From Thermoplasmata archaeon (GTDB lineage: Archaea > Thermoplasmatota > Thermoplasmata > RBG-16-68-12), in assembly GCA_035637195.1 (NCBI GenBank), contig DASPXQ010000088.1, positions 1-42,437 on the forward strand: 42,437 nucleotides of DNA. Reading direction: 5' to 3'. The notes beneath the pieces are model-generated. The model was not told where the DNA came from. It was given only the letters and a program-made list of their open reading frames with translations, and did no database searches. This document shows positions 6,601 to 37,385 of the stretch, in pieces. Made by a program: the position numbers and the translations under genes. Each line of letters opens with the position of its first letter. Position 1 is the first letter of the stretch.

Positions 6601-7696
6601 TGCGATCCGCCTCGTCGGCTACCGGCCCATCCCGGTGGCCAAGTCGGTCAGCTACCGCTTCTGTCCGCCGGGCGGCTGCGTCGAGCCTCCGCCGCCGCCG
6701 TGGTGGGAGCAAATCTGGCGCGGGATCGTGATCGTGGCGACGTTCATCCTCTCCGGAATCCTGTTCGTCGCGAACGCCTTCGTGCAACTCGGGAAGATCC
6801 TCGTCGCGGTCGGATCGTGGATCATCGCGCGTATCGTCGACCTGATCAACCTCGTCGCGAGCGCGCTGCAGGCAGCGGCGAAAGCCCTCGACCAACTTGC
6901 CGACTGGCTTGTGAAATTCGCAGTAGGTCTCTTCAGTACCATCTTCCAACCTATTTTGGACAACCTCAAGGCCGCGCGTCTTCTCCTCGGCCTGGGCTTG
7001 CTCGACGCGATTGAGAGAGCTCTGCTCGGAATCAAAAATGGACTCGATCCAGCGGTCGTTTCTTCGAGCTTCTCCAGAGACCTGGGGGCAGCTGTCTCGA
7101 CCATCCTCTTGATAGCCACCCTAATCGCTGTCGGATTTGCAATCGCGGTGGTCGCGCTTGCGCCATTCAGCTGGGCGATCGCGCTAATAGCGATTGCTGT
7201 GGTCGTCGGGATCGGAATAAGCTTGTTGGGCGCGTCCAGCCAACCTGTGAGCCTTACACCGATGGTCATCGCACCCGGCTTAGGAGCCGACCAAGTGGTT
7301 GGCACTACAATCGGATTCATTGGAATTGAATGGACCCCGGAGCTGAAGCGCGCCTTGGTCAGCGTCATAATCGGTGGTTGGGGGGTTGTTATCGGGACAG
7401 TCGGATTGTCGAAACCCTTGGGTGTAGGCGCGCTCGTTCTTGGGATCGCATCCTTGCTGATTTCGTGGGCCGCTGTTGGCGCAATCGCAAGCTTCCTGTC
7501 ATCCTACCAAGTCGAGTTGGCTACAATACTCTCCGCTGGGACGGCAATTGCCTCCATGGTGCTTGGGATTCCTTCGCTGTTCACCCCGCTGTACCCTCTC
7601 GGCCTCATATCCATCGCGCTTGGCGTCGTCGCAATACTTGTATCGCTGAATATCTTGCTGCCGCTTCGAATCAACTTACCCCAGGCTATTCGGTGA
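632..7696 (+). CDS. Giant (2354 aa) secreted adhesin-like surface protein with discoidin-like, TSP3-repeat and LamG modules and a multi-TM C-terminal module
   Basis: GTG start preceded by GGAGGG. Signal peptide MTLRALRVVAGICAVLMVILVFQAVQA. F5/8-type-C-like segment (AIDGAASTYW). At least 11 thrombospondin type-3-like Ca-binding repeats (DTDGDGL.D..E, DTDRDS..D, DTDADG). Two LamG/ConA-like modules (about nt 3680-4310 and 4330-4880). Numerous N-x-S/T sequons. The last ~330 aa are hydrophobic helices. Confidence 0.9.
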   Translation: MTLRALRVVAGICAVLMVILVFQAVQADVPNTGANEFNHALARHGAVADASGWLGTNPPSLAIDGAASTYWKNSQYTGSIQVTFPAKAYINEVHAHFLSVKYPSLSLYFDTNGNGQYEAVEKVWSTTTNGVLDVKITTSTYYTLGMRLTIDAKVGKNLAQIAEFEAYLRYDTDGDGLTNQQETSTVYFQDMKPAGFPRSIPDDGSNATASATSLAAFAGVPVSALANFTVDHPIKAQLTAAVGYWNGSAWVDRFIWDPGGQTGGQEGPGPTPLNATGGTSAPSAVLGLRTAEWSSGETDTGTVATVVVNLTGAKALATPAETAAGIIRPEFPADSFQTYLQWRLLVQDRVLGTAGSLISFVLRFESHSDAAKADTDGDGIGEAVELNTYGTLPVAADSDLDGLPDGYEVAPHTLTITGGSRTTISFAGTWGGSQGLSLGPSKSLILGNVSGVQGDLFVLAFGVAKDAGVMESVTDDVGSAWTRVVNVSNSGNVHLEIWTAFNAGPTRAIYVKPSAANLKITIILTQYAGVGSVGATGTGTGYGVTPAATARTTQPNAWVVGETAAQGTRLPAAANGTLRASVATSGSAASSNVGGAASDILVITPRDQQVKYSLGGSENWVAAAVELDPAPRPDSVIVLPAFTTDPTKWDTDGDGLSDGQERGNVSMGQTKVVGEVGVARNVGDGWTTVYLRNKYTTPVVIAEPTTSRDPAFNHARIRAVSDHTFQIKVERWAGSGAAEDVSYLVLEAGDHVLPDGTIVEAGTASIGTTVSSIFFRERFSSLPLILVQTQTTNDGSPVIAKRTSFLSATAFGAYLNANGTAHGAEAIGYVAVTPQVDPNVLATWTRAERTFSTPTAAWAFPSNFTAPPLVLAWMAGELSGGDKNIGLRLTAVTNASASIYREQVGSGAMDVIDFFAFAGPTNLTARMTTDPLRVDTDRDSLADGLEVNTYGSNPTSRDTDRDSIPDNIEVSDRTITIPVNGAIGTFTFKTSPTSDDTDADGLKDPDELAGVLDHRNLFLDMATRTGSGDLQDLSGNGGAGNVAGATCTGTIQGRVGSACSFGGSSARLVVPDSDALDFDLSFTLMAWVQPTTTAQPEGAGILAKGVSGAEAFAMDISGGAFRAVATANGTRITAPSSTPIVANRWYLVAAVYDGPSRTFTLFVNGSQASPVTGVPTSLTPNAHDMSIGSKESSSASGYDLGFVGVIDEVQTWDRPLSVSEISAYYNLTSSASPIVAWLDMGIRTASGDLADASGLGHSGVATGTTIVEGRSGFARKLAGGSDGIALVGTEPVSFANGATVSLYVLVSAYPSMDTSLVSRRGSLYLNLTSDGRVMWTNDKGSSLVSPSSIGLNRWVRIAATASSSTLTIYVDGLQVAYGPGGVPPTPPTPSPPIVLGYAEGLSHLSGSLDEVLILNAVPQSARTFLDLGARGIQLNPNATDTDGDGLADGQELVVQAFKTAKRYPLPEDSSATARRLDMTGFRYPAWAIRGIELMVGFTHPNMGNVSATFGHLTSDSPTAPQDHLFAFRPARSNVGEANNFTSYDLLQRPVSSGDTWYVPADFTSFAPFWFVKGTANLSAYDHGQLEYAQVQFTASTLPNRNDTDRDGLNDSEEVNPGSDGFRTNPWAVDTDADGVGDGLESGGWSFSGPSIGPDPGGFRTDPTRIDTDRDGIPDRRDRMPLGDGFVLISILSASVVGEDPHNPGNVTKPFVKATISGNDTYTPYLQNGTGSWNTTWNGETLEGHRLAVDVPDDQMSIDFTVAMWSYDSSGADNHTAIGIAREHFGGECYDVNEVTRTYEIGSVGGSTRYEFAGGCSSLYADPLVVVVSTIAPARVGSRLILPLDYSGVYNVTDSAGSILSRRYVGEPRFVALVLNVTSTGDWACVTPDGCDDAPIGPKVLFIPRSVFHDTFLGKKLADGNKTDVPDNLSFYQNGTGSNNSDALQQVIAGNVTADEYFRILGWLLRNGTGNATNRVVNETGDLFLYSLPDDAIRLVGYRPIPVAKSVSYRFCPPGGCVEPPPPPWWEQIWRGIVIVATFILSGILFVANAFVQLGKILVAVGSWIIARIVDLINLVASALQAAAKALDQLADWLVKFAVGLFSTIFQPILDNLKAARLLLGLGLLDAIERALLGIKNGLDPAVVSSSFSRDLGAAVSTILLIATLIAVGFAIAVVALAPFSWAIALIAIAVVVGIGISLLGASSQPVSLTPMVIAPGLGADQVVGTTIGFIGIEWTPELKRALVSVIIGGWGVVIGTVGLSKPLGVGALVLGIASLLISWAAVGAIASFLSSYQVELATILSAGTAIASMVLGIPSLFTPLYPLGLISIALGVVAILVSLNILLPLRINLPQAIR
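6701..7693 (+). other. C-terminal multi-pass membrane module of the giant protein (about 9-10 predicted TM helices, Gly/Ala/Ile/Val-rich)
   Basis: Begins after PPPPWWEQIW. Runs such as IVIVATFILSGILFVANAF, ILLIATLIAVGFAIAVVALAPF, LIAIAVVVGIGISLLGA, VIIGGWGVVIGTVGL and LGLISIALGVVAILVSLNILL. GC is visibly lower from about nt 6900 (sampled 60-nt lines are about 50%, against about 65-68% upstream). Confidence 0.6.
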
Positions 7697-8184
7697 TGAG
7701 CTTGCTTCCGGCGAATGAACCCCAAGACTCCGCGAGGAGGATGGTTAACGCTGCGAGAGAAAGACTTCGCTGGGTAGACTCCCTAGCCTCCATCGTTGTC
7801 CTTCTTGCAGTCCTCGGTTTCGTGGGTCTCTCCAGCGTTCTGACGACCGAAGGAAGCGCGAGCATCACCAATCTCGTGATTGTCATCATCGCTTTCATAT
7901 GGATCCCTCCCGTAGCCCATGTGGCGCAGTCTCGTGTCACTCCGAAATATGTCTACGTCTCTCGCGATTCCGTGGGCTGGTCGTCTTCTGAAACAGCGGA
8001 CACTAGATTTGTGCACAGACGGGATCTCGTCAATGTCACCAGGCGGACGAAGTCTGAGGCCCACCGCCGAGCGACGGTTTGGATAGAGTTCGACCTTGCT
8101 CCAAAGTCAATCCTCGCTAGGCGACGTTACATCGCTGTATCGGATGAAATCGCGAGTGCGATCGCCCAGTGGTGGCGAGGCTGA
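7696..8184 (+). CDS. Small membrane protein, 2 TM helices plus C-terminal beta-rich (PH-like) domain; paralog 1 of tandem array
   Basis: An internal ATG of track ORF 7330..8184 overlaps the stop of the giant gene (TGATG at 7694-7698), indicating translational coupling. TM helices are SLASIVVLLAVLGFVGLSSVL and ITNLVIVIIAFIWIPPVA, followed by PKYVYVSRDSVGW...RDLVNVT. Confidence 0.7.
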   Translation: MSLLPANEPQDSARRMVNAARERLRWVDSLASIVVLLAVLGFVGLSSVLTTEGSASITNLVIVIIAFIWIPPVAHVAQSRVTPKYVYVSRDSVGWSSSETADTRFVHRRDLVNVTRRTKSEAHRRATVWIEFDLAPKSILARRRYIAVSDEIASAIAQWWRG

Positions 8185-8413
8185 AATCAAGGAACATCCC
8201 GTGGACCATCTGCTTGTACGGCGCTGCTCCGGACGCTGGCGGCTTCTCGGCGGACGACCTCGGCGTCCAGTCGCTGTTGTCGGCATTATCCGTGCGATAC
8301 CCGTCCTATAGCCATTGAATATTGTCGGAGTGATTCTGAATCTGATCCTAGCCGGGCTTGCCTTCGCCGGTTTCGCAGCTGCGGTGGCGCACCTAGTGAG
8401 AGCTAGATGACGA

Positions 8414-9082
8414 ATGGGGCGGACCAACGGAATGCAGAATCAAAGGCCCATCCGCTTGGCAATCAACGGGTCTATGGTCTTTTGGTTCATCGCGATTCTC
8501 ATCGGCCTGTTCGTGATCCCGGCCATCGGCGCACCACTTGCGTTCACTTGGGCCGGTCTCCTCACAATCGCAGTAATCGGCACGTTCATCATACTCCACT
8601 TCCAGCCTCTCTCGATTGAACTCGCCGACGAGACCCTGCGCGTGCGGTGGCTCCGTCGACGCCGGAATGTGCAATCGTCGTCCGTGCGGACCTACGCGTT
8701 CCTCGTCGATCAGAAATACCTGGGAAGGGATTGGCCCGCGAGGTTCTATTCCCTGCACGTGTACCTTCTGAATGGCCGGAGGATCCTCGTGGGGGGGATT
8801 AGAGGGGCCCGTCGCGAAGGTCCTCCTCGAGAGGCTGCCCTCGAGCAAGTCCGAGCTTCGTGTCTACGCTGGCAGGCGTCGGCTCGAACTTCGACCGGTA
8901 GGGCTTGGCTGATCTCCGGATTCCGTATGTGGTCTTCGATTCGAGCGAATCCAACGACCCCGTGCGGTGGGGATCAGAGACCGGCCATAGCCGTGCATCT
9001 TCCTAGCGTCCATCGGTTTCGCAGTAGGCGCGATTGCATGGTACTCCGCAGTCAATATCTTCAGCAACATCTGTTGAGGTGA
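8414..9082 (+). CDS. Small membrane protein, 2 TM helices plus PH-like domain; paralog 2 (the C-terminal ~80 aa looks non-protein-like)
   Basis: TM helices MVFWFIAILIGLFVIPAIGA and FTWAGLLTIAVIGTFIILHF, then QPLSIELADETLRVRW...VRTYAFLV. The tail after about nt 8850 is Arg/Ser-rich and may be read-through. Confidence 0.55.
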   Translation: MGRTNGMQNQRPIRLAINGSMVFWFIAILIGLFVIPAIGAPLAFTWAGLLTIAVIGTFIILHFQPLSIELADETLRVRWLRRRRNVQSSSVRTYAFLVDQKYLGRDWPARFYSLHVYLLNGRRILVGGIRGARREGPPREAALEQVRASCLRWQASARTSTGRAWLISGFRMWSSIRANPTTPCGGDQRPAIAVHLPSVHRFRSRRDCMVLRSQYLQQHLLR

Positions 9083-9169
9083 AGTCACGAATAGGAGCCT
9101 GACGGGAGTCATGGTGCCGCCGGGCAAGATGAACGGCTGTCCAACGCACCGACGGTCGCCTCCTTCGCA

Positions 9170-9571
9170 GTGATTGGAGTCATCTTTGTATTCGCCGCCC
9201 TCCTCTTGCTCTCCGAGGGGCCACTGCGAACGGGGACGTTGGCAGACGCTTCGTACTACCTGGTGCTCTTCCTATTTGTCGCGATGGCGCTTGCCCTCTT
9301 TGTTGCGGCTTTCCAGTTCCCCTACGCTGTGGAAGTCTCTAACGAGGGTTTGGGCCTCAGGTACATTCACCGAAAAGAGATGGTACCGGCTGCCCGAATT
9401 TCGATGATTGAAGCCCGGGGAGGGTTCGTGGGTCGTAGCTGCTGGATCGTGTTTGCAAACGGAGAAGCTAAGCCGATTGGGATAAGGAACCGACGTCTGC
9501 CGGAACGCTGGCGCCGCTTCCATGCGCACGCGGCGACCCACGACGCCAATAAGGACCGATCCCGATACTGA
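9170..9571 (+). CDS. Small membrane protein, 2 TM helices plus PH-like domain; paralog 3
   Basis: GTG start. TM helices IGVIFVFAALLLLS and YYLVLFLFVAMALALFVAAF, then QFPYAVEVSNEGLGLRYIHRKEMVPAARISMIE. Same architecture as the two preceding genes. Confidence 0.65.
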   Translation: MIGVIFVFAALLLLSEGPLRTGTLADASYYLVLFLFVAMALALFVAAFQFPYAVEVSNEGLGLRYIHRKEMVPAARISMIEARGGFVGRSCWIVFANGEAKPIGIRNRRLPERWRRFHAHAATHDANKDRSRY

Positions 9572-9824
9572 TGTCGCCGAGCGCATGTGACCGCGGCTTT
9601 ACGGAAGCGAAGGTTCGCGCTACTGGCGCTCGAATTGCAGAAGCCGGGGTCAGTGCAAGCGTCTTCGTATTGGCCGAGGCGTACGGGACAGCGAATTCGG
9701 AAGGCGTCTTCGCGGTGGGCCGCGCGTCGGGACCGTTATCGCTCTCGATTCCGAGCCCGTCTGAATTATCTATCCCCCGGGAGGGTGCCCGAGCGGAGGT
9801 AACTCTGCCACGGCCGGCAATCGA

Positions 9825-13075: not shown

Positions 13076-13846
13076 ATGGAACCCGAGCCGACGCCCCCTC
13101 CGGAGACACCGCCACCGCCACCGCCGCCTCCTGAGGCGCCGCCTCCGCCGCCCGAGGCCGCGCCGGCCATCGAACCCGCGGCGACGACGGAAGGTCCTCC
13201 GGAAACCGCCGCAGAAGGCGAGCCGGCTCCGGTCGTCGAGAAGCCCAAGCGCGAGCCGAAGAAAGCCAAGAAACGGCCCAGCTATGAAATGAAGCTCTTC
13301 GAGAAGTACGACCTGAACGAGGTGGTCGTGCACGACGCCGGACTCGCGAAGTACATGAACCTCTCACCGATCGTCATCCCACACACGGGTGGGCGGTACG
13401 CGAACAAGCCGTTCGGCAAGGCCAAGTCGAACCTCGTCGAGCGGCTGATCAACGGCATGATGCGCACGGAGAATTACACCGGAAAGAAGGCGAAGTCCTA
13501 TCGGGTCGTGCGCACCGCGTTCGAGATCATCGCGCAGAAAACTGGGAAGAACCCTGTGCAGATCCTCGTCGATGCGCTCGAGAAAGCCGCGCCCCGCGAG
13601 GAGATCACGCGCCTCCGGTTCGGCGGCATCAGCGTGCCCCGCGCCGTCGACGTCGCCCCTTCCCGACGGCTCGACCTCGCCCTGCGCAGCATCACGACCG
13701 GGGCGGTCTCGGCGACGTTCAAGAACCGCAAGCCCGTCGAGGAGTGCCTCGCGGACGAAATCCTCATGGCGGCGAAAGGCGACATGCAGAGCTCCGCGAT
13801 CGCGAAGAAGGAGGAGCTCGAGCGGGTCGCATCCTCCGCGCGATGA
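13076..13846 (+). CDS. rps7: 30S ribosomal protein S7 (uS7) with a 71-aa Pro/Glu/Ala-rich N-terminal extension
   Basis: The canonical archaeal uS7 begins at MKLFEKYDLNEVVVHDAGL (ATG 13289). The ORF opens at ATG 13076, 4 nt after the rps12 stop, with GAGGT 6 nt upstream. The extension reads MEPEPTPPPETPPPPPPPPEAPPPPPEAAP...KREPKKAKKRPSYE. Confidence 0.85.
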   Translation: MEPEPTPPPETPPPPPPPPEAPPPPPEAAPAIEPAATTEGPPETAAEGEPAPVVEKPKREPKKAKKRPSYEMKLFEKYDLNEVVVHDAGLAKYMNLSPIVIPHTGGRYANKPFGKAKSNLVERLINGMMRTENYTGKKAKSYRVVRTAFEIIAQKTGKNPVQILVDALEKAAPREEITRLRFGGISVPRAVDVAPSRRLDLALRSITTGAVSATFKNRKPVEECLADEILMAAKGDMQSSAIAKKEELERVASSAR

Positions 13847-13925: not shown

Positions 13926-16900
13926 ATGGGACGTAAGGAAGAAAATATCAAGAAAGCCCAGGCGTTGCTCCACCTGAAGGACCGCATCCGCAACATCGGC
14001 ACCGCGGCACACATCGACCATGGCAAATGTTGTCATGGTAGCACGCGGATCTGGGTCAGCGGCGAGTGGGTAACCGCTGAGAACCTCTGGGCCCGCTTCG
14101 AAAATCTTTCTGCCGTTCCGAACGCTCACGGCGCAGAAGTCAAGGATCTGATCCATGAGGACCTGTGGACTCTTTCGCTCGACGTGCGTTCAGGCAGGAC
14201 TCAGTTCTCGCAAATTACTCACGCTTGGCGACTTCCTGCCACGGAGCCACTCGTCGAAATCGAGAGTCGCGACGGGAGAATCATCCGGACCACTCCTGAA
14301 CATCCGTTCGTCGTCGGATCGGAACAGTCGCTTCAATTTCGAGCTGCTCGTGATCTCAGGAAGGGGGATGTGCTTGCGGTCCCGAGGACACTGCCATCTC
14401 AGGGCGACGGCGAGAATTGGGCAGATCTGGAATCAGAGATGGTACTTCGCCTTGCGGAAGATCCGAATTTCTTGTTCAAGCTGACGGATCCCGGGGAACA
14501 AATCGCGAAGGAGAGCGGTGCCATCCGCGGGGAATCTCTTCTCGCGAGATTCAGGGAGCTCGCGACACCGCCGGCGAGCATCTATGAGTTTGTGGAATCA
14601 ATCTGGTATGAGCCCTGCAAGACTACGAGTCGAGCGTCCCGACCGATTCGCCTGCCGAAGCGAGCCGAGCTGGAGGAATTCTTCTGGTTCGTCGGCCTTC
14701 TGTACGGCGACGGGGATGGGAATTGCGTCATTACCGGGGCCGATAAGCAGCTCCTGACCCGAGCCCTCCGATTCATCAGAAAGCTATCTCCGGGCGCGAG
14801 TCTTGCGCGCGATTCCGGGCGGCCAATCTACAGGCTACACCCTGGCTCGAATAGTTTCGTTCAGCTCATGCATTCCCTGTTCGGGTACCCGCTTCGACGC
14901 AAGGCGTGGAGCATCCGGTTACCGAGTCAGTTGCACACGGCGCCGCTACCCTTGGCTGCGGCGTTCATCCAAGGATACCTAGATGCAGACGGGACCGTTG
15001 AGAAGGCGCGCTCCGCCGTTTCGGCGACGAGTGTGTCCGAACCGTTCCTGGATGAGCTCCAGCTCCTCCTCTTACGGTTCGGTGTGAGGGCAATCTTCAA
15101 CCGGGAGAGAGGCCGCTCAACGCTCTACGTTTCGGGTCGACGGAATCTTTCACGCCTTCCGGATTTCAGTGACCCTAGCAAGGCCTCTCTTCGAAAGAAA
15201 CTGGAGGCTAAGTCGAAGACCTCCTACGTCGTGGACCTGTTACCCGTGAGATGGGAACGGATACGGCCAAACGACTACAAGAGTCGCTTTTACGCGCTGG
15301 CCAGCGAGCGCCCGTCGATCCGGTCCTTGCTACTGATGGCGGGTCCTGACATCGCAGCGGTCGAACACCTCATGAATGAAGATGTGGCGTTCGTTGAGGT
15401 GAGCCATATTCGGCATACTCGAACAAAGTGGGTATACGACTTCTCGGTGCCGGGCCCGAAGAACTTCGTAGCGGAAGGCTTCTTCATCCACAACACCACC
15501 CTCTCCGACTCCCTCATCGCGGGCGCGGGGATGATCTCCGAGGAACTCGCGGGCCAGCAACTCTTCATGGACTACGACCCTCAGGAGCAGGAGCGCGGCA
15601 TCACGATCAACGCGGCCATCGCGTCGATGGTCCACGATTTCGAGGGCGGCCAGTACCTCATCAACCTCATCGACACGCCCGGCCACGTCGACTTCGGCGG
15701 GGACGTAACCCGTGCGATGCGGGCCATCGATGGCGTGATCATACTCGACGACTCCGTCGAAGGGATCATGCCGCAGACGGAGACGGTCATCCGTCAGGCG
15801 CTGAAGGAACGCGTGAGGCCCGTCCTGTTCATCAACAAGGTCGACCGCCTCGTCAACGAGTTGAAGATCAGCCCGGAGCAAATGCAGCAGCGATTCCAGA
15901 AGATCATCATGGAGGTCAACAATCGCATCCGGAAATGGCTGCCCGAGGACCTCGGAGAGAAGTGGATGGTGAACGTCGAGGCGGGCAGCGTCGCGTTCGG
16001 GAGCGCGTACCACAAGTGGGCCGTGAGCGCCCCCTTCACGAAGCGGACGGGCATCGGGTTCAAGGACATCTACAAGCACTGTCAAGAGGGGACGATGAAA
16101 GAGCTCGCGAAGAAGGCGCCTCTCCACAACGTCGTGCTGAACATGGTCATCCGTCACCTGCCGAATCCGCTCGAAGCACAGAAAATCCGGATCCCGATCA
16201 TCTGGAAAGGAGACCCGCAGTCGCCCGTCGGCAACGCGATGATGACGGTCGATGAAAACGGTCCCGTCGGGTTCATGGTGACGAAGATCATCGTCGACCC
16301 CCAGGCGGGCGAAGTGGCCGCCGGTCGCCTCTATTCGGGCAAGATTCGCCGGGGCCAAGAGCTGTGGGTCAGCGGGATGCCGAAGCCCCAGCGCGCGCAG
16401 ACCGTCGCGATGATCGTCGGCCCGGACCGCATCCCGGTCGACGAGATCGACGCGGGGAACGTGGTCGCGGTGGTCGGCCTGCGGGACGCGGTCGCCGGCT
16501 CGACCGTGAGCGACGACAAGGAGATGCAGCCCTTCGAGAAGATCGTCCACTACTCCGATCCGGTCGTCACGATCGCCGTCGAGGCGAAGTCGACGTCGGA
16601 CCTGCCGAAACTCGTCGAGGCGTTGCGCCTGCTCGCAAAGGCGGATCCGAGCATCCAAGTGGAGATCAACCAGGAGACCGGGGAGCACCTGATCTCTGGG
16701 ATGGGCGAACTCCACCTCGAGATCACGATCTACCGCGTTCAGAACGACTACAAGATCCCCGTCACGACGAGCACTCCCATCGTCGTCTACCGGGAGGGCG
16801 TGGGCGGCAAGGGCGGGCCGTTCGAAGGCAAGTCCCCGAACAAGCACAACCGCTTCTATATGGAGGTCGAGCCGCTCGAGGAGAAGGTCGTCGCCGCGAT

Positions 16901-17591
16901 CCGCGCCGGCGAGATCGCGTCCGGCCAGCGCATCAAGGATTCGAAGGTCCTCGCGAAGAAGCTCGAGGAGCTCGGGATGGACCGGAACGACGCGAAGAAC
17001 GTCGTGTGGATCCAAGACACGAACATGCTGCTCGATGCGACGAAAGGGATCCAGTATCTCCACGAGACGATGGAACTGATCAAGGAGGCCTTCACGGAGG
17101 CGATGAACCGCGGCCCGCTCGCGGCGGAGAAAGGCATGGCGTTGAAGGTGAGCCTCGTCGACGCGAAGCTCCACGAGGACTCCGTCCACCGCGGGCCCGC
17201 GCAGGTCATCCCCGCCGCCCGATCCTCGATCTACGGCGCGATGGTCCAGGCCGGACGCATCTTGCTGGAGCCTGTCCAGAAGGTCTTCATCAACGTCCCG
17301 CAAGACTTCATGGGTGCCGCGATCGGCGACATCCAGAGCCGCCGTGGCGTGATCGAGGACATCAGCCAGGAAGGGGAGATCACGGTCATCCACGCGAAGG
17401 CGCCGGTCGCAGAGATGTTCGGCTTCGCCTCCGCCATCCGGTCGGCGACGCAGGGACGCGCGCTGTGGTCGACGGAGAACAGCGGCTTCGAGGCCGTGCC
17501 GGGGAACCTTCTGTCGGAGGTCGTCCGCGCGATCCGCACGCGGAAGGGACTACCGCCGGAACCGTACGACGAAGCGTACTACTCCGCGTGA
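13926..17591 (+). CDS. fusA: Translation elongation factor aEF-2, intein-containing precursor (732-aa extein plus 489-aa intein)
   Basis: The G1 motif AHIDHGK is interrupted. The sequence resumes [12 protein letters not shown]...[13 protein letters not shown]...DTPGHVDF...NKVDR and continues with full EF-2 domains to the C-terminus. Confidence 0.95.
14028..15494 (+). mobile_element. Intein with LAGLIDADG homing endonuclease, inserted in the P-loop of aEF-2 (after AHIDHGK)
   Basis: Starts with Cys ([14 protein letters not shown]). Block B is TTPEHPF. Two LAGLIDADG motifs ([11 protein letters not shown] and [11 protein letters not shown]). Blocks F/G are [21 protein letters not shown], followed by the +1 Thr. 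GC is visibly lower than in the flanking extein. Confidence 0.9.
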
Positions 17592-31587: not shown

Positions 31588-32673
31588 ATGTCCACGCTCG
31601 CCGAGAACGCCGTCAAGAACTGCCTTCGAATCGGACCGGACGACAACGTCAGCATCTTCTGCTATCCGCACACGTTGCCGCTCGCGGAAGATCTCGCAAT
31701 CGAATGCTTCAAGGTGGGCGCCGACGCCCTCCTGGACCTGTACACGGACCGTTACCACGTCGCGTACATGAAGCACCTGGCTGTCGAGCAGCTGCGGAAA
31801 CCGTCGGCGTTCTGTCGCGGCCTTTCCGAACTCTCGACCGCCGTCTTCTGGGCCGGCTCGCTGTACGATCCGTCCAACTTCCGGAAGTTCACGCCGGAGA
31901 AGATGGCGGCGAACGACGAGGCCGAGACCGCCGCCCACCTGCCGATGCGCGAGCGGAAGGTACGAAGCCTTTCCCTGGGCATTTCCCTCGTGACGCGTCC
32001 GCGGGCGAAGGTGTACGGTTTCAACTTCGCGGCGTGGGAGCGGATGGTCCGCGCCGCCTCGTCCGTGCCATCGAAGACCCTCACGACGACGGGGCAGAAG
32101 CTCGCGGGCATCCTCGGGACCGCGGACACGCTCCACGTGACCTCCGAAGGGGGTACCGACCTGACGGTCTCCGTGCGCGGGCGGCAGCCGATGATCTACG
32201 ACGGGGTCGTCGACGAGGAGGACATCGCCGCGGGCGTGTTCGAGGCCTCGATCCCGTCCGGGAGCGTGACCGTCTTGCCGGACCCGGCGAGCGCCGAGGG
32301 GACCGTCGCGTTCGACACGTCGCAGGCTTGGGCCGGTCGGTCCGTCCGAAAGCTGAGCTGGGAATTCCGGAAGGGACGGCTCACGGGCTTCGAAGGGGAT
32401 GCGAGCGCGGCGGTGCTGAAGAAACAGTACGACCTCGCGTCGGGCGACAAGGACCGCATCGCGTCCGTCTCGATCGGGACGAACCCGAAGGCCCAAGTCG
32501 GCTTCCTCCAGAACTCGATCGTCCGTGGGGCCGTGTCGATCGGACTCGGCGGCAGCGAATTCTTCGGGGGACCGAACAAGTCGTCGTTCGGGTTCGAGAG
32601 CACAATCCGGGCCGCGACGCTCGAGGCCGACGGGAAGGAAATCGTCCGCGGCGGCAAGCTGCTCTTCGCGTGA
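31588..32673 (+). CDS. Aminopeptidase, M29 (AmpS/aminopeptidase T)-like
   Basis: 361 aa. The N-terminal pattern LAENAVKNCLRIGPDDNVSIF...LPLAEDLAIECFKVGA and the size fit M29 proteins as I recall them. No search was run. Confidence 0.5.
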   Translation: MSTLAENAVKNCLRIGPDDNVSIFCYPHTLPLAEDLAIECFKVGADALLDLYTDRYHVAYMKHLAVEQLRKPSAFCRGLSELSTAVFWAGSLYDPSNFRKFTPEKMAANDEAETAAHLPMRERKVRSLSLGISLVTRPRAKVYGFNFAAWERMVRAASSVPSKTLTTTGQKLAGILGTADTLHVTSEGGTDLTVSVRGRQPMIYDGVVDEEDIAAGVFEASIPSGSVTVLPDPASAEGTVAFDTSQAWAGRSVRKLSWEFRKGRLTGFEGDASAAVLKKQYDLASGDKDRIASVSIGTNPKAQVGFLQNSIVRGAVSIGLGGSEFFGGPNKSSFGFESTIRAATLEADGKEIVRGGKLLFA

Positions 32674-32738: not shown

Positions 32739-34787
32739 GTGCGATCGTCCGGACGATGGCTCGCAGCCCCCCTGGCGGCCGTCGTGCTCCTGGCGTCGCC
32801 CCTCTGGACGGAGCGTGCGGCGACCCTCCCCCCGTTTTCTCCGCCGTCGCCCGTCCTATTTTCTTCCGGTTTAGGGGCTGCCGTCGTCCTCGCGCGAGTC
32901 TACGCGAACGCCGCCCGCGATGACGAGTTCGTCGAGATCGCGAGTCGGTCGACGGAATTCCTTGACCTCGCGGGCTGGTCCCTCGCGGATGGCGAGGCGA
33001 CTGCGGTATTCCCTCCCGATTCGATCTTGCCTCCGGGCGGGCATCTCCTGATTGCGCGGAACGCGACGAGCTACGCGGAGGATGCACTCGCGGCCGCGGA
33101 CTTCGCGTTCGAGGACGGCGCATCTCGGCGGATGGAGGGCGGCGTCCTCCGGCTCGCCGATGCCGGAGACGAGGTCCGCCTCGTGGACCCATCCGAGCGG
33201 ATCGTTGACGCGTACGTGTGGGGCGATTCCTCGGATGCGAGCACGGGATGGCTCGGGCGTCCCGCGGAAGCGACGGGGCGCGGAGAGATCGCCGTGCGCT
33301 CCCGGACCGAACTCGGTGAATGGATCGATTCCGATGGCGCGGCCGATTGGGAAGGCCTCCGCCGGCACCGACTCGGTCAGTCGACTTTGCCGCCCTTGGA
33401 ATTCCAGGTCGGTGGAGGGTTCGCACCGGTCCTATCGCCGGACGCCGGAGACGGCCCGCTGCGTTCGTTCGTCGAATCGGCGCGAGGAACGCTCGACATC
33501 GCGGTCTACACGTTCACGAGTGCGCGGATCGCATCGACCGTCGCGAGCCTCGAGGGCCGGGGCGTTCGGGTCCGGGTGCTCCTCGACGGCTCGCCGGTTG
33601 GAGGCGTGGAACCGGAAGAAGACCGCGTGGTCCGCGGGCTCCTCGACGCCGGGGCGGACGTCCGATGGTTGGCGGGCGCGGGCGACACCGTGAAGCGGTA
33701 CCGGTACCTTCATGCGAAATACGCAATCATCGATCATAGGGCCGCCTGGATCGGGTCAGAGAACTTTGGGGATGCGGGCTTTCCTCCGGAGGCCCAGGAG
33801 GGGAATCGAGGGTGGTCCGTCGTCGTCGCAGACGTCGCCCTCGCGGCGGCCCTGACGAACGTGTTCGAGGCCGATTTCAACCCTTCGCGACGGGATTCGA
33901 TCGCGGCCATGCCCGAAAGCGGCGACCCCCTCCCGCCACCGCAGCCAAGCCCTCCGTGGACCTCCTCCGCCGCGTCGACGAGTCGCCGGGCGAGGCTCGT
34001 GATCGCTCCCGACACCTCGCTCGACCCGGGCGGCCTCCTGGAGGTCCTCGCCTCCGCGTCGGATCACATCTGGATCGAGGCGTTCTACGTCGACGAGACG
34101 TGGCGGGACCATCCGAATCCCTTCCTCGGGGCCGCCTTCGACGCGGCTCGCCGCGGGGTCTCCGTGCGTCTCCTCCTGGACGGCAGCTGGTCCTCGGTCG
34201 GGGACGATTCGGCGGGGAACGACGCGATCGTGGAAAGACTCAACCGCCGTGCGCGGAACGAGAGCCTCGATTTCGCCGCACGACTATTGGAGCCCCACGG
34301 GCGAATCGAGCGACTCCACAACAAGGGCGTCGTCGTCGACGGCCGCACGGTCCTCGTCTCGAGCATGAACTGGGCGCTCGGGTCCGCGACCGAGAACCGC
34401 GAGATCGGGATCATCCTGGACGACCCCGACATGGCGGGCTTCTTCGAAGCCGCGTTCGCCGCCGACTGGGACGGTCGGCCGACGTCCGGGGTCGACGCGT
34501 GGCGGCTCGAAGACCCGGTCGTCCTCGTGGGCGTCTACGCGTTCGTCGGGATCGCCTCGGCGGTTTCGCTGCGCAAATTGAGAGTCGGGGCCAAAGGAAT
34601 AAAGCCCCGCGCGGGGCTGCGACGGCGTGGCGCCTTCGGAGCTCATCTCCGCGGCCGACGTGGAGAAGTTCGGCTACTGCCCTCTGAGCTGGTGGCTCAG
34701 TCGCGGGCTCGCTCCGGAGGAAGGCGCCGAGCTCGTCGAGGGCGAGAAGAAGCACGAGGCCGCGTCCGCGGACCTGAAGGGGATTGA
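32739..34787 (+). CDS. Secreted lamin-tail-domain plus double-HKD phospholipase D/nuclease-family protein with a C-terminal TM anchor
   Basis: GTG start about 25 nt after a TATA-like GCTTATCG. Signal peptide WLAAPLAAVVLLASPLW. LTD-like VLARVYANAARDDEFVEI...LAGWSLADG. HKD motif 1 is YLHAKYAIIDHRAAWIGSENF and HKD motif 2 is RLHNKGVVVDGRTVLVSSMNW. TM helix VVLVGVYAFVGIASAVSL is followed by an Arg-rich tail. Confidence 0.8.
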   Translation: MRSSGRWLAAPLAAVVLLASPLWTERAATLPPFSPPSPVLFSSGLGAAVVLARVYANAARDDEFVEIASRSTEFLDLAGWSLADGEATAVFPPDSILPPGGHLLIARNATSYAEDALAAADFAFEDGASRRMEGGVLRLADAGDEVRLVDPSERIVDAYVWGDSSDASTGWLGRPAEATGRGEIAVRSRTELGEWIDSDGAADWEGLRRHRLGQSTLPPLEFQVGGGFAPVLSPDAGDGPLRSFVESARGTLDIAVYTFTSARIASTVASLEGRGVRVRVLLDGSPVGGVEPEEDRVVRGLLDAGADVRWLAGAGDTVKRYRYLHAKYAIIDHRAAWIGSENFGDAGFPPEAQEGNRGWSVVVADVALAAALTNVFEADFNPSRRDSIAAMPESGDPLPPPQPSPPWTSSAASTSRRARLVIAPDTSLDPGGLLEVLASASDHIWIEAFYVDETWRDHPNPFLGAAFDAARRGVSVRLLLDGSWSSVGDDSAGNDAIVERLNRRARNESLDFAARLLEPHGRIERLHNKGVVVDGRTVLVSSMNWALGSATENREIGIILDDPDMAGFFEAAFAADWDGRPTSGVDAWRLEDPVVLVGVYAFVGIASAVSLRKLRVGAKGIKPRAGLRRRGAFGAHLRGRRGEVRLLPSELVAQSRARSGGRRRARRGREEARGRVRGPEGD

Positions 34788-35625
34788 GACCCACGAGGCC
34801 CGCGCCCGCGAGGCGGAGTCCGGCGTCATGTACTTCGCGATCGCGGCATCGATCGTCGCGATCGTGGGCGTGGGGTTCCTCACGTCCGCCATCTTGCAGA
34901 TCGCGCAGATCCTCGCTGCGATCGCTTTGATCTGGCTCCTCGCGGCCGTGTACTTCCTGTACCGTGCGGAGACGCTCGCGACGCCGGAGGAGAAGCTGCT
35001 CTCCGAGCGGGTCATCCTGGGATTCGCGATGGCCGCGGCGGTGATCGCGACGGCGGCCGTCTCGTTGCCGGGGATCGCGAACCAGGCGCTCGCCCAAGGC
35101 TTCGAGGCGCTCGCGCTCACGTGGCTCATCGGCGCCTCGTTCTTCCTCTACCGTTCGATCGGCGCGCTCGGCATCGCGCTGGCGACACGCCAGCGATACC
35201 ACGTGAAAGGCGACCTCGTGTACATCGACTCCGCGGCGGAGAAGCCGAAGCTGTTCGTCTCGAAGCGGCACGGTCTCTCCGGCCGGCCCGACGCGGTCGT
35301 CATGGACGGGGAACACCACATCCCGGTCGAGATCAAGACGGGCCGCGTGCCTCGGGGGCCCCTGTTCTCGCACATCCTCCAGGTCGTCGCGTACTGCGTA
35401 CTCCTCGAGGAGGAGTACGGCAAGGCGCCTCCCTATGGCGTGATCCGGTACGGCGAGACGAACTACGAGATCGAGTACAACGACGACCAGAAGAAGCTCC
35501 TCCTGCAGAAGCTCGCGGAGATGCGCGCGTCGATCGCGAAGGGCGAGGCCCATCGCAACCACACCCGACCGGGGAAGTGCGTCCACTGCTCCCGGCGGGG
35601 CGTGTGCCCGGAGCGGCTCGCCTAG
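34627..35625 (+). CDS. Cas4/RecB-like PD-(D/E)xK Fe-S nuclease with four TM helices inserted in the core (not CRISPR-associated)
   Basis: N-terminal Cys motif VEKFGYCPLSWWL. TM helices MYFAIAASIVAIVGVGFLTSAIL, ILAAIALIWLLAAVYFLY, VILGFAMAAAVIATAAVSL and LALTWLIGASFFLYRSIGALGIAL. Nuclease motifs GRPDAVV, VEIKTG and LQVVAYCVLL. C-terminal CVHCSRRGVC. Confidence 0.75.
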   Translation: MAPSELISAADVEKFGYCPLSWWLSRGLAPEEGAELVEGEKKHEAASADLKGIETHEARAREAESGVMYFAIAASIVAIVGVGFLTSAILQIAQILAAIALIWLLAAVYFLYRAETLATPEEKLLSERVILGFAMAAAVIATAAVSLPGIANQALAQGFEALALTWLIGASFFLYRSIGALGIALATRQRYHVKGDLVYIDSAAEKPKLFVSKRHGLSGRPDAVVMDGEHHIPVEIKTGRVPRGPLFSHILQVVAYCVLLEEEYGKAPPYGVIRYGETNYEIEYNDDQKKLLLQKLAEMRASIAKGEAHRNHTRPGKCVHCSRRGVCPERLA

Positions 35626-35990
35626 GGCCCCTTCTTCTTGTCGCCGAGCGTCACCCCGAGACGTTCCGCGATCTGCTCGATCTGGTGCCGAAGTTCCCCG
35701 ACCTCCCGGCGCATGTGGAGCATCTCCTGCTCGAACGGGGTGAAGCTTTGTGTGGACAGGATTCGATGGGATACGAGCATCCCGATGAAGACCGCCCCGA
35801 CGATCGAGAGGATCGAGATTGCCGCGACCGCGAGCAAGAACGTGAAGAGCGATGTGCTCGGGTCGCTCGGGTTGATCAGCCCCGTGAGGACCCCGAGCTC
35901 GATCGCGACCAGCACGCTCACGATGAGGATCCACAGGAGGGTCGACCGCGAAAGCCTCACGGGAGCGTCCCCCGCAGCGGGATGCCCCAA
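35622..35990 (-). CDS. Hypothetical membrane protein (2 TM helices plus C-terminal coiled-coil-like helix)
   Basis: TM helices LLWILIVSVLVAIELGVLTGLI and LFTFLLAVAAISILSIVGAVFIGMLV, then EQEMLHMRREVGELRHQIEQIAERLG. Confidence 0.6.
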   Translation of the reverse strand: MGHPAAGDAPVRLSRSTLLWILIVSVLVAIELGVLTGLINPSDPSTSLFTFLLAVAAISILSIVGAVFIGMLVSHRILSTQSFTPFEQEMLHMRREVGELRHQIEQIAERLGVTLGDKKKGP

Positions 35991-36433
35991 CGGAAGTCGT
36001 CCGGCGGGTACCGTCGGATCACCGTGTTCACGTTGTCCTTCTCGTACGGGAATGTGAACAACATGAAGGTCCGGTTATCGAGATCTTTCTCCGCGCGAAC
36101 CGTCACATTGTACTCAAAGTAGTTCCCGACGTGGTCGACGAAATACGCGTCCACCGTGAAGGAGGCGTTCGCAGGCACCCAACGATGGATGCCATACGAG
36201 TCCATCTCCTCGATCGATCCGTTGACCGCCGCCGAGGACTCGTTGAACGTCAAGCGGATCAGGTCATACTGGTACGCCTGGAGCGCCCAGCTGGCGTAGA
36301 CCACGAAAGACGACTCGTTCCGCGACATCCCGATGATCAGGACCGGGAGGGATGCGAACCCCGGCGTCGGCCGCCCCAGCAACGCCGGCGTGACGACGAT
36401 CAACGAAGCCAGGAGCAAGACCGACAGGACCAT
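35957..36433 (-). CDS. Hypothetical membrane-anchored extracellular protein rich in N-glycosylation sequons
   Basis: Start placed at the internal ATG, giving anchor MVLSVLLLASLIVVTPALLG. Six N-x-S/T sequons (NES, NGS, NAS, NVT, NRT, NVN-T). The track ORF extends to 36562 but overlaps the upstream gene. Confidence 0.55.
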   Translation of the reverse strand: MVLSVLLLASLIVVTPALLGRPTPGFASLPVLIIGMSRNESSFVVYASWALQAYQYDLIRLTFNESSAAVNGSIEEMDSYGIHRWVPANASFTVDAYFVDHVGNYFEYNVTVRAEKDLDNRTFMLFTFPYEKDNVNTVIRRYPPDDFRWGIPLRGTLP

Positions 36434-36518
36434 CGCGGTGCGGACCCACACCTCCCGCTCCACGTCGCGGCCAATAGAGAGAAATGATAATAAACGTTCG
36501 GCGCGGGGCGGCTCTCGG

Positions 36519-36860
36519 CTAGGCCTCGTCCGGACCGAAGTGCAAGAGCGACGCGACGCCAAACAGACAGGCGCTCACGACAGCCGCGAGGAAGTTCGTG
36601 GCCGCACCGTCGGCCGTGCCGAAGGCGAGGTATCCGACCGCCGAATTGGTGAACGACGCGGCGCTGAACAGTCCGCTCGACAGCCAGAGGAACTTTCGCA
36701 GGCGCGCATTGAACGTGAGCGGCGGCTGCTCGACGTCGTGCGCCGGAGGAGAGGAGAACTTATGAAGCCACCCGAGGAGCGAGCGAATGCGGACGAGGAC
36801 CGCCGCATCGGAGGGACGCAAGACGTCGGCGGCGGGCGGGGACTCCGTGGTCGTCGCCAC
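36519..36860 (-). CDS. Hypothetical small membrane protein (2 TM helices)
   Basis: 113 aa with FLWLSSGLFSAASFTNSAVGYLAF and ATNFLAAVVSACLFGVASLLHF. First gene of a three-gene overlapping minus-strand unit. Confidence 0.5.
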   Translation of the reverse strand: MATTTESPPAADVLRPSDAAVLVRIRSLLGWLHKFSSPPAHDVEQPPLTFNARLRKFLWLSSGLFSAASFTNSAVGYLAFGTADGAATNFLAAVVSACLFGVASLLHFGPDEA

Positions 36861-37145: not shown

Positions 37146-37385
37146 CTATTTTTGCATGTACTCCCGCTTGAACGCCTCGGCCTCGGCCAAGGTTCGCTCC
37201 GCGTCCTGCATCTTCTTGAGCTTCTCAGTGACCAGCTCGACGCGGCCGTAGACGAAATCGCGGATCGCCGCGCGCACGGCCTCCGAACGGCTCGGGAAGT
37301 CGTCGACCTGCACGAGGAAGTCGAGCGCCTTCAGGTACCGCGCGGGCAGGCGCAGTGTGATCTTCTCCGTGTCCGCATCCCGCAT
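37146..37385 (-). CDS. Ribbon-helix-helix (CopG/Arc-type) DNA-binding protein
   Basis: EKITLRLPARYLKALDFLVQVDDFPSRSEAVRAAIRDFV shows the beta-strand, helix, helix RHH pattern. 79 aa. Confidence 0.75.
   Translation of the reverse strand: MRDADTEKITLRLPARYLKALDFLVQVDDFPSRSEAVRAAIRDFVYGRVELVTEKLKKMQDAERTLAEAEAFKREYMQK

Follow-up and report, generated by a model that had tools for sequence, protein, structure and literature searches.

About half of all Cas4 genes lie outside CRISPR loci (PMC5704561), and few have been characterised. A large conserved clade described here bears on the cellular role of these solo-Cas4 proteins. The member studied is encoded on a 42,437-nt stretch of DNA from a Thermoplasmata archaeon (contig DASPXQ010000088.1 of assembly GCA_035637195.1), and this whole stretch is called the window. 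The protein, the product of gene 2, is a Cas4-family nuclease whose core is split by four predicted transmembrane (TM) helices, and its gene overlaps that of a putative surface phosphodiesterase (gene 1), which combines a lamin-tail domain (LTD) with two HKD motifs of the phospholipase D (PLD) superfamily. The novelty lies in this membrane-split Cas4 (TM-Cas4), whose helical hairpin varies in copy number across hundreds of archaeal species, and not in a new two-gene system.

The Cas4-family protein SSO0001 binds its catalytic metal through a His that precedes the D, D/E, K triad (PMC13621843). Like Cas4 and solo-Cas4 proteins in general (PF01930, TIGR00372; SSO0001, Pcal_0546, type I-C Cas4 and the Methanosarcina mazei Solo-Cas4), the gene 2 product has the D, ExK and QxxxY motifs, the upstream His and the C...CxxCx5C pattern, and like other solo-Cas4 it is encoded away from any cas gene (PMC5704561). 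Known Cas4 proteins are soluble single domains of ~170-220 aa, often assembled as toroidal oligomers, whereas the gene 2 product has 332 aa with four TM helices inside its core, and in the TM-Cas4 family the core is split by an insert of 2, 4 or 8 helices. The family also differs from known Cas4 in a near-invariant HRNH motif before the Cys triad and in its stable housekeeping position.

For gene 1 the closest described layout is that of ExeM, a membrane-bound extracellular nuclease with a signal, an LTD, a nuclease domain, a TM segment and an Arg/basic cluster (PMC6085458), and an LTD has also been found in a protein of a DNA-degradation locus (PMC8289736). Gene 1 resembles the ExeM/Xds surface nucleases of Shewanella and Vibrio in its signal-like N-terminus, LTD, phosphoesterase domain, C-terminal TM segment and basic cluster; its catalytic domain, however, is a two-HKD PLD fold instead of the EEP and OB folds of ExeM, its host is an archaeon, and it is known here from sequence. 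PLD3 and PLD4 are lysosomal 5'-3' exonucleases acting on single-stranded DNA. They are single-pass membrane proteins with an exoplasmic catalytic domain, are near-top fold matches of gene 1 and, like the bacterial Nuc and NucT (both found by sequence), share with it the two-HKD or HKD-dimer fold. In contrast to PLD3/4, which have an N-terminal anchor and no LTD, gene 1 is C-anchored and carries an LTD; the identity is 17-21%, and the phospholipase 7e0m matches equally well.

A Cas4-family nuclease with a split core

Genes 1 and 2 are open reading frames (ORFs) that overlap by 161 nt, and in the ORF list of the window they lie exactly where an earlier, sequence-only reading of this DNA had placed them. 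What they display exceeds by far anything that chance would produce. Gene 2 has the following features:

34627..35625, plus strand: gene 2, a predicted 332-aa membrane-inserted solo Cas4-family Fe-S nuclease (ORF; Cas4/PDDEXK_1 profiles)
34648..34761, plus strand: N-terminal Cas4 module, aa 8-45, SAxDxEKxxYC18PLSWWL ... G39xxxH43 (conservation; aligns to residues 7-58 of the type I-C Cas4 8d3l, an alignment not significant by itself)
34804..34980, plus strand: TM hairpin 1, aa 60-118, helices ~67-85 and ~88-112 (hydropathy; model helices 34-83 and 90-115)
34981..35202, plus strand: TM hairpin 2, aa 119-192, helices ~128-148 and ~160-186 (duplicate of hairpin 1 by hhalign)
35212..35622, plus strand: Cas4 catalytic core, aa 196-332, with G219RPD222, E235xK237, Q252xxxY256, H309RNH312 and C318xxC321x5C327 (profiles, conservation)

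The protein scores above the curated cut-offs of the family profiles (TIGR00372, 78.7 bits against 65; PF01930, 35.9 against 22.7; PF12705, 50.7 against 22). The Cas4 and PDDEXK_1 models cover only aa ~200-330 (model positions ~52-180), a partial coverage that is due to the insert. Hydropathy places four hydrophobic segments at aa ~67-186 (about nt 34825-35184), after Cys18 and His43 and before the D, ExK and QxxxY motifs and the other three Cys, which is the interrupted core that the sequence-only reading had described. The Cas4/RecB hallmarks that it had listed are likewise all there: the key residues Cys18, His43, D222, E235, K237, Q252, Y256, C318, C321 and C327 supply D, ExK, QxxxY and four Cys, one N-terminal and three in the C-terminal CxxCx5C, which are predicted to form the Fe-S cluster.

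These residues are conserved among 26 four-TM members with 26-50% identity to the window protein. Y17, C18, G39, G219, D222, K237, Q252, C318, C321 and C327 are invariant, while H43, E235, Y256 and the HRNH at 309-312 are invariant or nearly so, and the catalytic D, E and K and the Cys cluster, on whose conservation the sequence-only reading had hinged, are therefore kept. Because His43, at the metal-ligand position of SSO0001, is N-terminal to the insert and the triad is C-terminal to it, the insert splits the active site.

The AlphaFold2 model built on the 26-sequence alignment has a pLDDT of 87.1 and a pTM of 0.77, and places the beta/alpha core after the long helices 34-83, 90-115, 120-146 and 153-191. 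Its top Foldseek matches are 8d3q_J, 8d3l and 7mi5 (type I-C Cas4 and Cas4-Cas1), then Dna2, MGME1 and ACE1, with a probability of 1.00 and a target-normalised TM-score of 0.48-0.55. Each sequence and fold test of Cas4 identity thus gave a positive answer, and gene 2 is a solo-Cas4 whose membrane-integrated architecture is new.

Only the unusual architecture and the overlap with gene 1 would speak for an artefactual TM segment, in which a frameshift had joined a small N-terminal ORF, the gene of a membrane protein and a Cas4 gene; the sequence-only reading had itself considered a frameshifted fusion of two genes. This explanation, to which we give next to no weight, is ruled out by the uniform GC content at third codon positions (GC3) across the three segments of a continuous ORF (0.91, 0.93 and 0.94), by the occurrence of the same architecture in hundreds of independent assemblies, and by the confident single-chain model.

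Both outer loops (aa 85-89 and 147-159) are short and carry no charge; the charges are found in the N-terminal part, in the middle loop and in the segment after TM4. The even number of helices and this positive-inside pattern indicate a predicted N-in/C-in topology, in which the two nuclease halves would be reassembled at the cytoplasmic face, in agreement with the earlier expectation.

The insert is itself modular. Hairpin 1 (aa 60-118) and hairpin 2 (aa 119-192) align by hhalign with a probability of 98.2% and an E-value of 3.7e-14, a score somewhat inflated by the compositional bias of TM segments, and the second helix of both carries the motif (S/A)LxWLxxAxxFLY. This similarity, together with the existence of relatives with 2, 4 and 8 helices, indicates that the insert is a putative TM helical hairpin unit of ~57 residues that was duplicated, with two copies here and one or four in relatives. 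The alignment of the four-TM members contains no conserved charged or polar residues within the TM helices, so that the insert, as judged from these sequences, resembles a module for anchoring or oligomerisation more than it does an obvious pore.

Distribution and genomic context of TM-Cas4

A scan of one genome per species detected TM-Cas4 relatives in at least 505 species genomes. The best 80 of these are all Thermoplasmata/Thermoplasmatota metagenome-assembled genomes (MAGs) from soils, sediments and groundwater, some of them labelled Methanomassiliicoccales, and the nearest relative is a soil Thermoplasmata MAG (locus L005, 98% identity). Hundreds of full-length relatives of gene 2 with 58-98% identity, all of ~297-340 aa, were returned by a word-indexed search, and 1167 clusters at E<=1e-3, ordinary Cas4 included, by an exhaustive search of representatives; the full-length architecture is kept down to 26% identity. 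Hydropathy analysis of the best 150 clusters, which have the catalytic core in common, gave these architecture classes:

4 TM helices, ~320-360 aa
8 TM helices, ~500-650 aa
2 TM helices, ~260-285 aa
a single N-terminal hydrophobic helix, without the N-terminal Cys, ~170-180 aa

A 400-aa form labelled "Euryarchaeota archaeon" shows that the family reaches marine plankton, and the single-TM branch belongs to Anaerolineales (Chloroflexota). In the latter, the ~170-aa Cas4-like genes (L088, L089 and L090, each at ~4260-9680) are part of a conserved operon, SSB-DUF3467-x-x-Cas4-NAD kinase-x-RecN, with LexA nearby in L088 and L089. This operon argues for a DNA substrate and suggests that the Anaerolineales protein is a nuclease of repair or recombination, tethered to the membrane.

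Two further members have distinctive surroundings or domains. One archaeal protein of 622 aa (L091, 6001-7869) combines about seven or eight TM helices with a pair of TRAM (nucleic-acid-binding) domains at its C-terminus, and in a Thermoplasmatota MAG (L074, 9827-15791) the TM-Cas4 gene is directly upstream of SMC- and ScpA-like genes, which were assigned from their N-terminal sequences only. The "Cas4-like" clade of JCVI-syn3.0 was considered as a relative and rejected, being a different, soluble DUF2779 fusion. No description of a membrane form was found in the Cas4 phylogenomics survey or in other open-access papers and bioRxiv, and an arCOG-level note elsewhere is possible.

In the source databases these proteins are labelled "CRISPR-associated protein Cas4" or "Dna2/Cas4 domain-containing protein". 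At the loci examined, however, no cas gene or array accompanies TM-Cas4, and the first of these automatic labels is misleading. Family profiles found no cas genes among the window genes scanned, and a tandem-repeat scan found no CRISPR-like or tandem-repeat array in the window, the sole repeats lying in Pro-rich coding sequence of S7, so that the absence of both had been correctly noted from the letters alone. Gene 2 therefore has no adjoining cas1/cas2 or array of the kind that marks a CRISPR-associated Cas4, and the called genes of related loci include no cas gene either.

TM-Cas4 is a solo (non-CRISPR) Cas4/RecB-type nuclease with a predicted [4Fe-4S] cluster. In the reading that we prefer, it would be held against the inner membrane surface, as a housekeeping enzyme that may trim or degrade DNA ends or single-stranded DNA at the inner membrane face. 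The modular membrane anchoring, the retention of all catalytic and cluster residues and the housekeeping position argue for a non-immune, membrane-proximal DNA transaction in the Thermoplasmatota, and the related single-anchor form of the Anaerolineales adjoins SSB and RecN.

An RNA substrate is improbable. A membrane-anchored RNA-processing nuclease, similar to the membrane-tethered RNase Y or RNase E, would suit the archaeal branch with two C-terminal TRAM domains, which are typically RNA-binding, and the translation genes present in several neighbourhoods (S2, L15e, L40e, Cbf5 and tRNA synthetases). However, translation genes are common near any core region, the SSB, RecN and LexA context in Anaerolineales is DNA-related, and the characterised Cas4, AddB, Dna2 and MGME1 relatives, which are the top structural matches, all act on DNA.

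The LTD-PLD protein and its pairing with TM-Cas4

The features of gene 1 are:

32739..34787, plus strand: gene 1, a predicted 682-aa surface-anchored LTD and double-HKD (PLD-superfamily) phosphodiesterase (ORF; Pfam LTD, PLDc_2 twice, PLDc)
32757..32807, plus strand: signal-peptide-like hydrophobic N-terminus, aa 7-23, after Arg2/Arg6 (sequence; model helix 9-18)
32877..33224, plus strand: lamin-tail domain, aa 47-162 (Pfam PF00932, E 4.4e-14, 53.2 bits against a cut-off of 34.3)
33711..33764, plus strand: HKD motif 1, HAKYAIIDHRAAWIGSEN, aa 325-342 (regex match)
34317..34370, plus strand: HKD motif 2, HNKGVVVDGRTVLVSSMN, aa 527-544 (regex match)
34515..34580, plus strand: C-terminal TM anchor, aa ~593-614 (Kyte-Doolittle maximum 2.12; model helix 593-620)
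34581..34787, plus strand: Arg/Lys-rich cytoplasmic tail, whose codons from aa 630 run, in a different frame, through the first part of gene 2

Of the features named in the sequence-only reading, the LTD, two HKD motifs and C-terminal TM segment are borne out by Pfam, motif and hydropathy analysis, and the signal by a signal-like hydrophobic N-terminus. Both HKD motifs fit HxKx4Dx6(G/S)SxN exactly, and PLDc_2 matches in two stretches (E 4e-39). Across 47 homologs, H325, K327, D332, S340 and N342 of motif 1 and H527, N528, K529, S542 and N544 of motif 2 are invariant, with D534 nearly so. The AlphaFold2 model has a pLDDT of 73 (85-97 in the PLD core, moderate in the LTD, ~31 in the disordered tail), and its bilobal fold, with the two HKD motifs, is that of the PLD superfamily. 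In the region of overlap the gene 1 frame has a GC3 of 0.47 and a GC content at first codon positions of 0.91, which is the codon signal of gene 2 only, and the more distant gene 1 homologs end before the Cas4 start or within 24 nt of it; both observations suggest that the last ~53 residues of the tail are probably a by-product of the overlap.

The substrate of gene 1 is harder to read from its relatives. Its best fold match, Serratia phospholipase D (7e0m, 1.6e-21), is essentially level with mouse and human PLD3 (from 1.9e-20); human PLD4 (about 1e-17), vaccinia F13 and Streptomyces PLD come next, with PLD, PLD3/4 and F13 all at E 1e-17 to 1e-21. The NCBIfam models rank DrmC (1e-21), NucT (1e-12) and ClsB (2e-9), with cardiolipin synthase also matching, and all are far under their cut-offs. 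Lipid and nucleic acid are therefore tied by sequence against the PDB, by NCBIfam and by fold. For this surface nuclease or phosphodiesterase we lean, at slightly better than an even chance, towards nucleic acid as the substrate, lipid being distinctly less probable, on account of the ExeM-like layout, the presence of LTDs in extracellular DNA-degrading proteins, the fold matches to PLD3/PLD4 and the sequence matches to NucT and DrmC.

A tblastn search of all fetched loci with the window proteins showed that 57 loci, which belong to one large clade, have the LTD-PLD gene immediately upstream of TM-Cas4 and in the same orientation; the Cas4 identity there ranges from 98% down to ~50% and the PLD identity down to ~36%. 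About 50 of these loci have the two genes overlapping by 4-170 nt or separated by <=24 nt, the overlap being typically 161 or 170 nt in the nearer subclade and 4-76 nt elsewhere, and at one locus the gap is 160 nt. The tblastn distances for L002-L004, L033 and L080 are unreliable, since the alignments ran beyond stop codons; in the JGI/ENA gene calls for L002 the PLD stop is 1 nt before the Cas4 start. The adjacency survives where TIM is displaced by 3-6 kb or lost (L018, L020, L023, L030, L036 and L042), and also the insertion of an M29-like peptidase gene, as in the window. The overlap or short gap kept across diverging loci is good evidence for a predicted co-transcription or translational coupling of PLD and Cas4 in the PLD-bearing clade.

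Taken as a whole, the locus is best explained by a membrane-anchored solo Cas4 that would act on DNA at the cytoplasmic face and is coupled, in one clade, to a surface phosphodiesterase, an account that we hold at about an even chance. In the PLD-bearing clade, gene 1 may cut extracellular nucleic acid outside the cell, and the Cas4 may handle DNA arriving at or attached to the membrane, so that the pair would serve scavenging or uptake, and not immunity.

Several observations weigh against this account. No PLD gene is found within 10 kb of TM-Cas4 in 15 informative loci, most of which share another housekeeping neighbourhood, in which a TPD-motif protein precedes TM-Cas4 and GlmS and a GlmU-like gene follow it, and PLD is likewise absent around five other types of TM-Cas4 neighbourhood. 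In the PLD-bearing clade the block of PLD, Cas4, two opposite-strand small membrane proteins, a CdrS-like ribbon-helix-helix (RHH) protein and an aminotransferase is syntenic throughout, and the adjacency could thus be inherited gene order rather than functional linkage. The top fold match of gene 1, 7e0m, is a true phospholipase, near-tied with PLD3, and the source annotations label gene 1 homologs as cardiolipin-synthase-like. In gene 2, the predicted closure of the four-Cys cluster across the insert rests on conservation and not on distances. Finally, no channel or translocase component is evident in the pair, whose TM hairpins lack conserved polar residues, and the missing translocation step is the weak point of an uptake mechanism.

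The neighbourhoods without PLD are diverse. In L034 the downstream block is retained and PLD is missing; the marine 400-aa form is found between ribosomal protein S2/Dus and HxlR, a 2-TM form between POR and SIR2, and the TRAM-fused form (L091) next to FtsZ/tubulin and L15e genes, while L40e and an oxidoreductase flank the most distant 4-TM forms. No partner gene is common to all the neighbourhood types, SSB/RecN and SMC-ScpA being single-lineage hints. A conserved two-gene module is therefore not what the family as a whole displays. TM-Cas4 is an autonomous conserved gene, and PLD, adjoining in 57 loci of one clade and absent from 15 loci and five other types, is a clade-specific operon partner, not an obligate one. 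Of the PLD-Cas4 coupling that the sequence-only reading had proposed, what stands is a property of that clade, and the extension to the whole Cas4 subfamily does not. In a rough neighbour-joining distance tree the PLD-adjacent loci form two groups with the non-adjacent group between them, and not one tight terminal group, which would fit an old PLD adjacency later broken in one lineage, although the tree is too crude to insist on this.

In the non-adjacent clade, the TPD-motif protein (PF14811, E 1e-42; L060, 9149-9964, and equivalents) is on the same strand and ends ~35 nt before TM-Cas4.

If the pairing is inherited order only, PLD would be a lipid enzyme, a phospholipase or head-group transphosphatidylase working on the outer leaflet or on environmental lipids, and TM-Cas4 would act separately at the membrane, in DNA repair, recombination or chromosome segregation. 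We regard this as a serious but doubtful alternative. It takes up the phospholipase 7e0m as the top match of PLD by both fold and sequence, the matches to the ClsB and cardiolipin-synthase models with which the source annotations concur, the many lineages with TM-Cas4 and no PLD, the SSB-...-NAD kinase-...-RecN operon near LexA in Anaerolineales, the one Thermoplasmata locus with TM-Cas4 directly upstream of SMC-ScpA, and the synteny of the entire block. It accounts less well for an overlap or gap of <=24 nt kept in about 50 of 57 loci while the PLD identity drops to 36%, for pairs that stay intact where the upstream TIM is displaced, and for an LTD and C-terminal anchor layout that is that of surface nucleases. 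We know of no cardiolipin synthase built from a signal peptide, an ectodomain and a C-terminal anchor, which also counts against a lipid enzyme.

Uptake or scavenging of DNA, one of the roles suggested in the sequence-only reading, is a possible function of the pair. In its most developed form, TM-Cas4 would be the cytoplasmic processing nuclease of an unrecognised archaeal route for uptake or salvage of extracellular DNA, with the LTD-PLD protein as the outer tethered nuclease in the window's clade, and oligomers of the hairpin repeats (1, 2 or 4 copies) would make up or gate a passage through the membrane. NucA/EndA with ComEC, an outward membrane nuclease and a polytopic membrane protein with a nuclease domain, would be its non-homologous counterpart. 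The analogy is functional only: ComEC has no homology to gene 2, its nuclease domain is external and its channel helices are many more, whereas the gene 2 nuclease is predicted to be cytoplasmic and its insert has no pore-like features. We consider this elaborate version unlikely. If it is true that the PLD-Cas4 operon handles extracellular DNA, it would be a first candidate for the machinery by which these uncultured archaea of soil and sea scavenge or take up DNA.

The other role suggested, defence, is not supported. A dedicated anti-virus or anti-plasmid system, in which the two proteins would degrade incoming DNA at the membrane, draws on the fact that both domain types occur in known defence systems and on the PADLOC scan of the window proteins, which gave domain-level matches to DrmC (the PLD protein of DISARM) and Cas4 but no complete system. 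DrmC is the best PADLOC and NCBIfam match of the second HKD domain of gene 1. Nevertheless, the NCBIfam score is 77 bits against an equivalog cut-off of 133, no DISARM partner genes (DrmA, DrmB or a methylase) are nearby, and gene 1, in contrast to DrmC, is extracytoplasmic. The surroundings of the pair are core-chromosome genes (S12, S7, intein-containing EF-2, EF-1a, S10, FTHFS, FBPase, aldolase, TIM and Kae1), and its position is stable in dozens of species, as opposed to the patchy, island-like spread typical of defence genes. At the related loci, too, every neighbourhood is of the housekeeping, core-chromosome type, and none is a defence island. Moreover, with the family so widespread among species genomes, no relative was found in the viral contigs scanned with the family alignment. 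A defence role is accordingly very improbable.

Neighbouring genes in the window

The nearer neighbours of the pair are TIM, the M29-like peptidase, the small membrane proteins, the CdrS-like RHH protein and the aminotransferase. The two small membrane proteins are:

35622..35990, minus strand: 122-aa two-TM protein, convergent with Cas4 and overlapping its stop codon (ORF list)
35957..36562, minus strand: 201-aa protein with a single TM helix, at the N-terminus, and probably an extracytoplasmic domain (ORF list)

The 122-aa protein, which has no significant family match in the Pfam and NCBIfam profile scans, is tblastn-positive in almost all PLD-adjacent loci and in L034, and absent from the non-adjacent clade. 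The 201-aa protein, also with no family match in the profile scans, is retained in the nearer part of the PLD-Cas4 clade (tblastn of the fetched loci). Beyond them, the 79-aa RHH protein (37146-37385, minus strand) resembles the archaeal cell-division and cell-cycle regulators CdrS and aCcr1 (NCBIfam E 1.7e-10, under the cut-off), and its position 3' of Cas4 is kept in nearly all PLD-adjacent loci. On the other side of the pair, the M29-like aminopeptidase gene (31588-32673, plus strand) stands between TIM and PLD only in the window and three closer relatives (L005, L009 and L015), and appears to have been inserted recently into the syntenic block.

Further upstream, the elongation factor 2 gene (13926-17591, plus strand; product of 1221 aa) contains an intein with a LAGLIDADG homing-endonuclease domain directly after the GTP-binding motif (Intein_splicing E 3e-22; LAGLIDADG_3 E 2e-14). 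A 2354-aa protein (632-7696, plus strand) is probably a giant surface protein; its N-terminus has a hydrophobic segment, and it contains bacterial TSP3 repeats and two Laminin_G_3 domains. Ribosomal protein S7 (13076-13846, plus strand) has a Pro/Ala-rich N-terminal extension of ~90 residues, and its repeats at 13092-13164 are the tandem repeats mentioned above.

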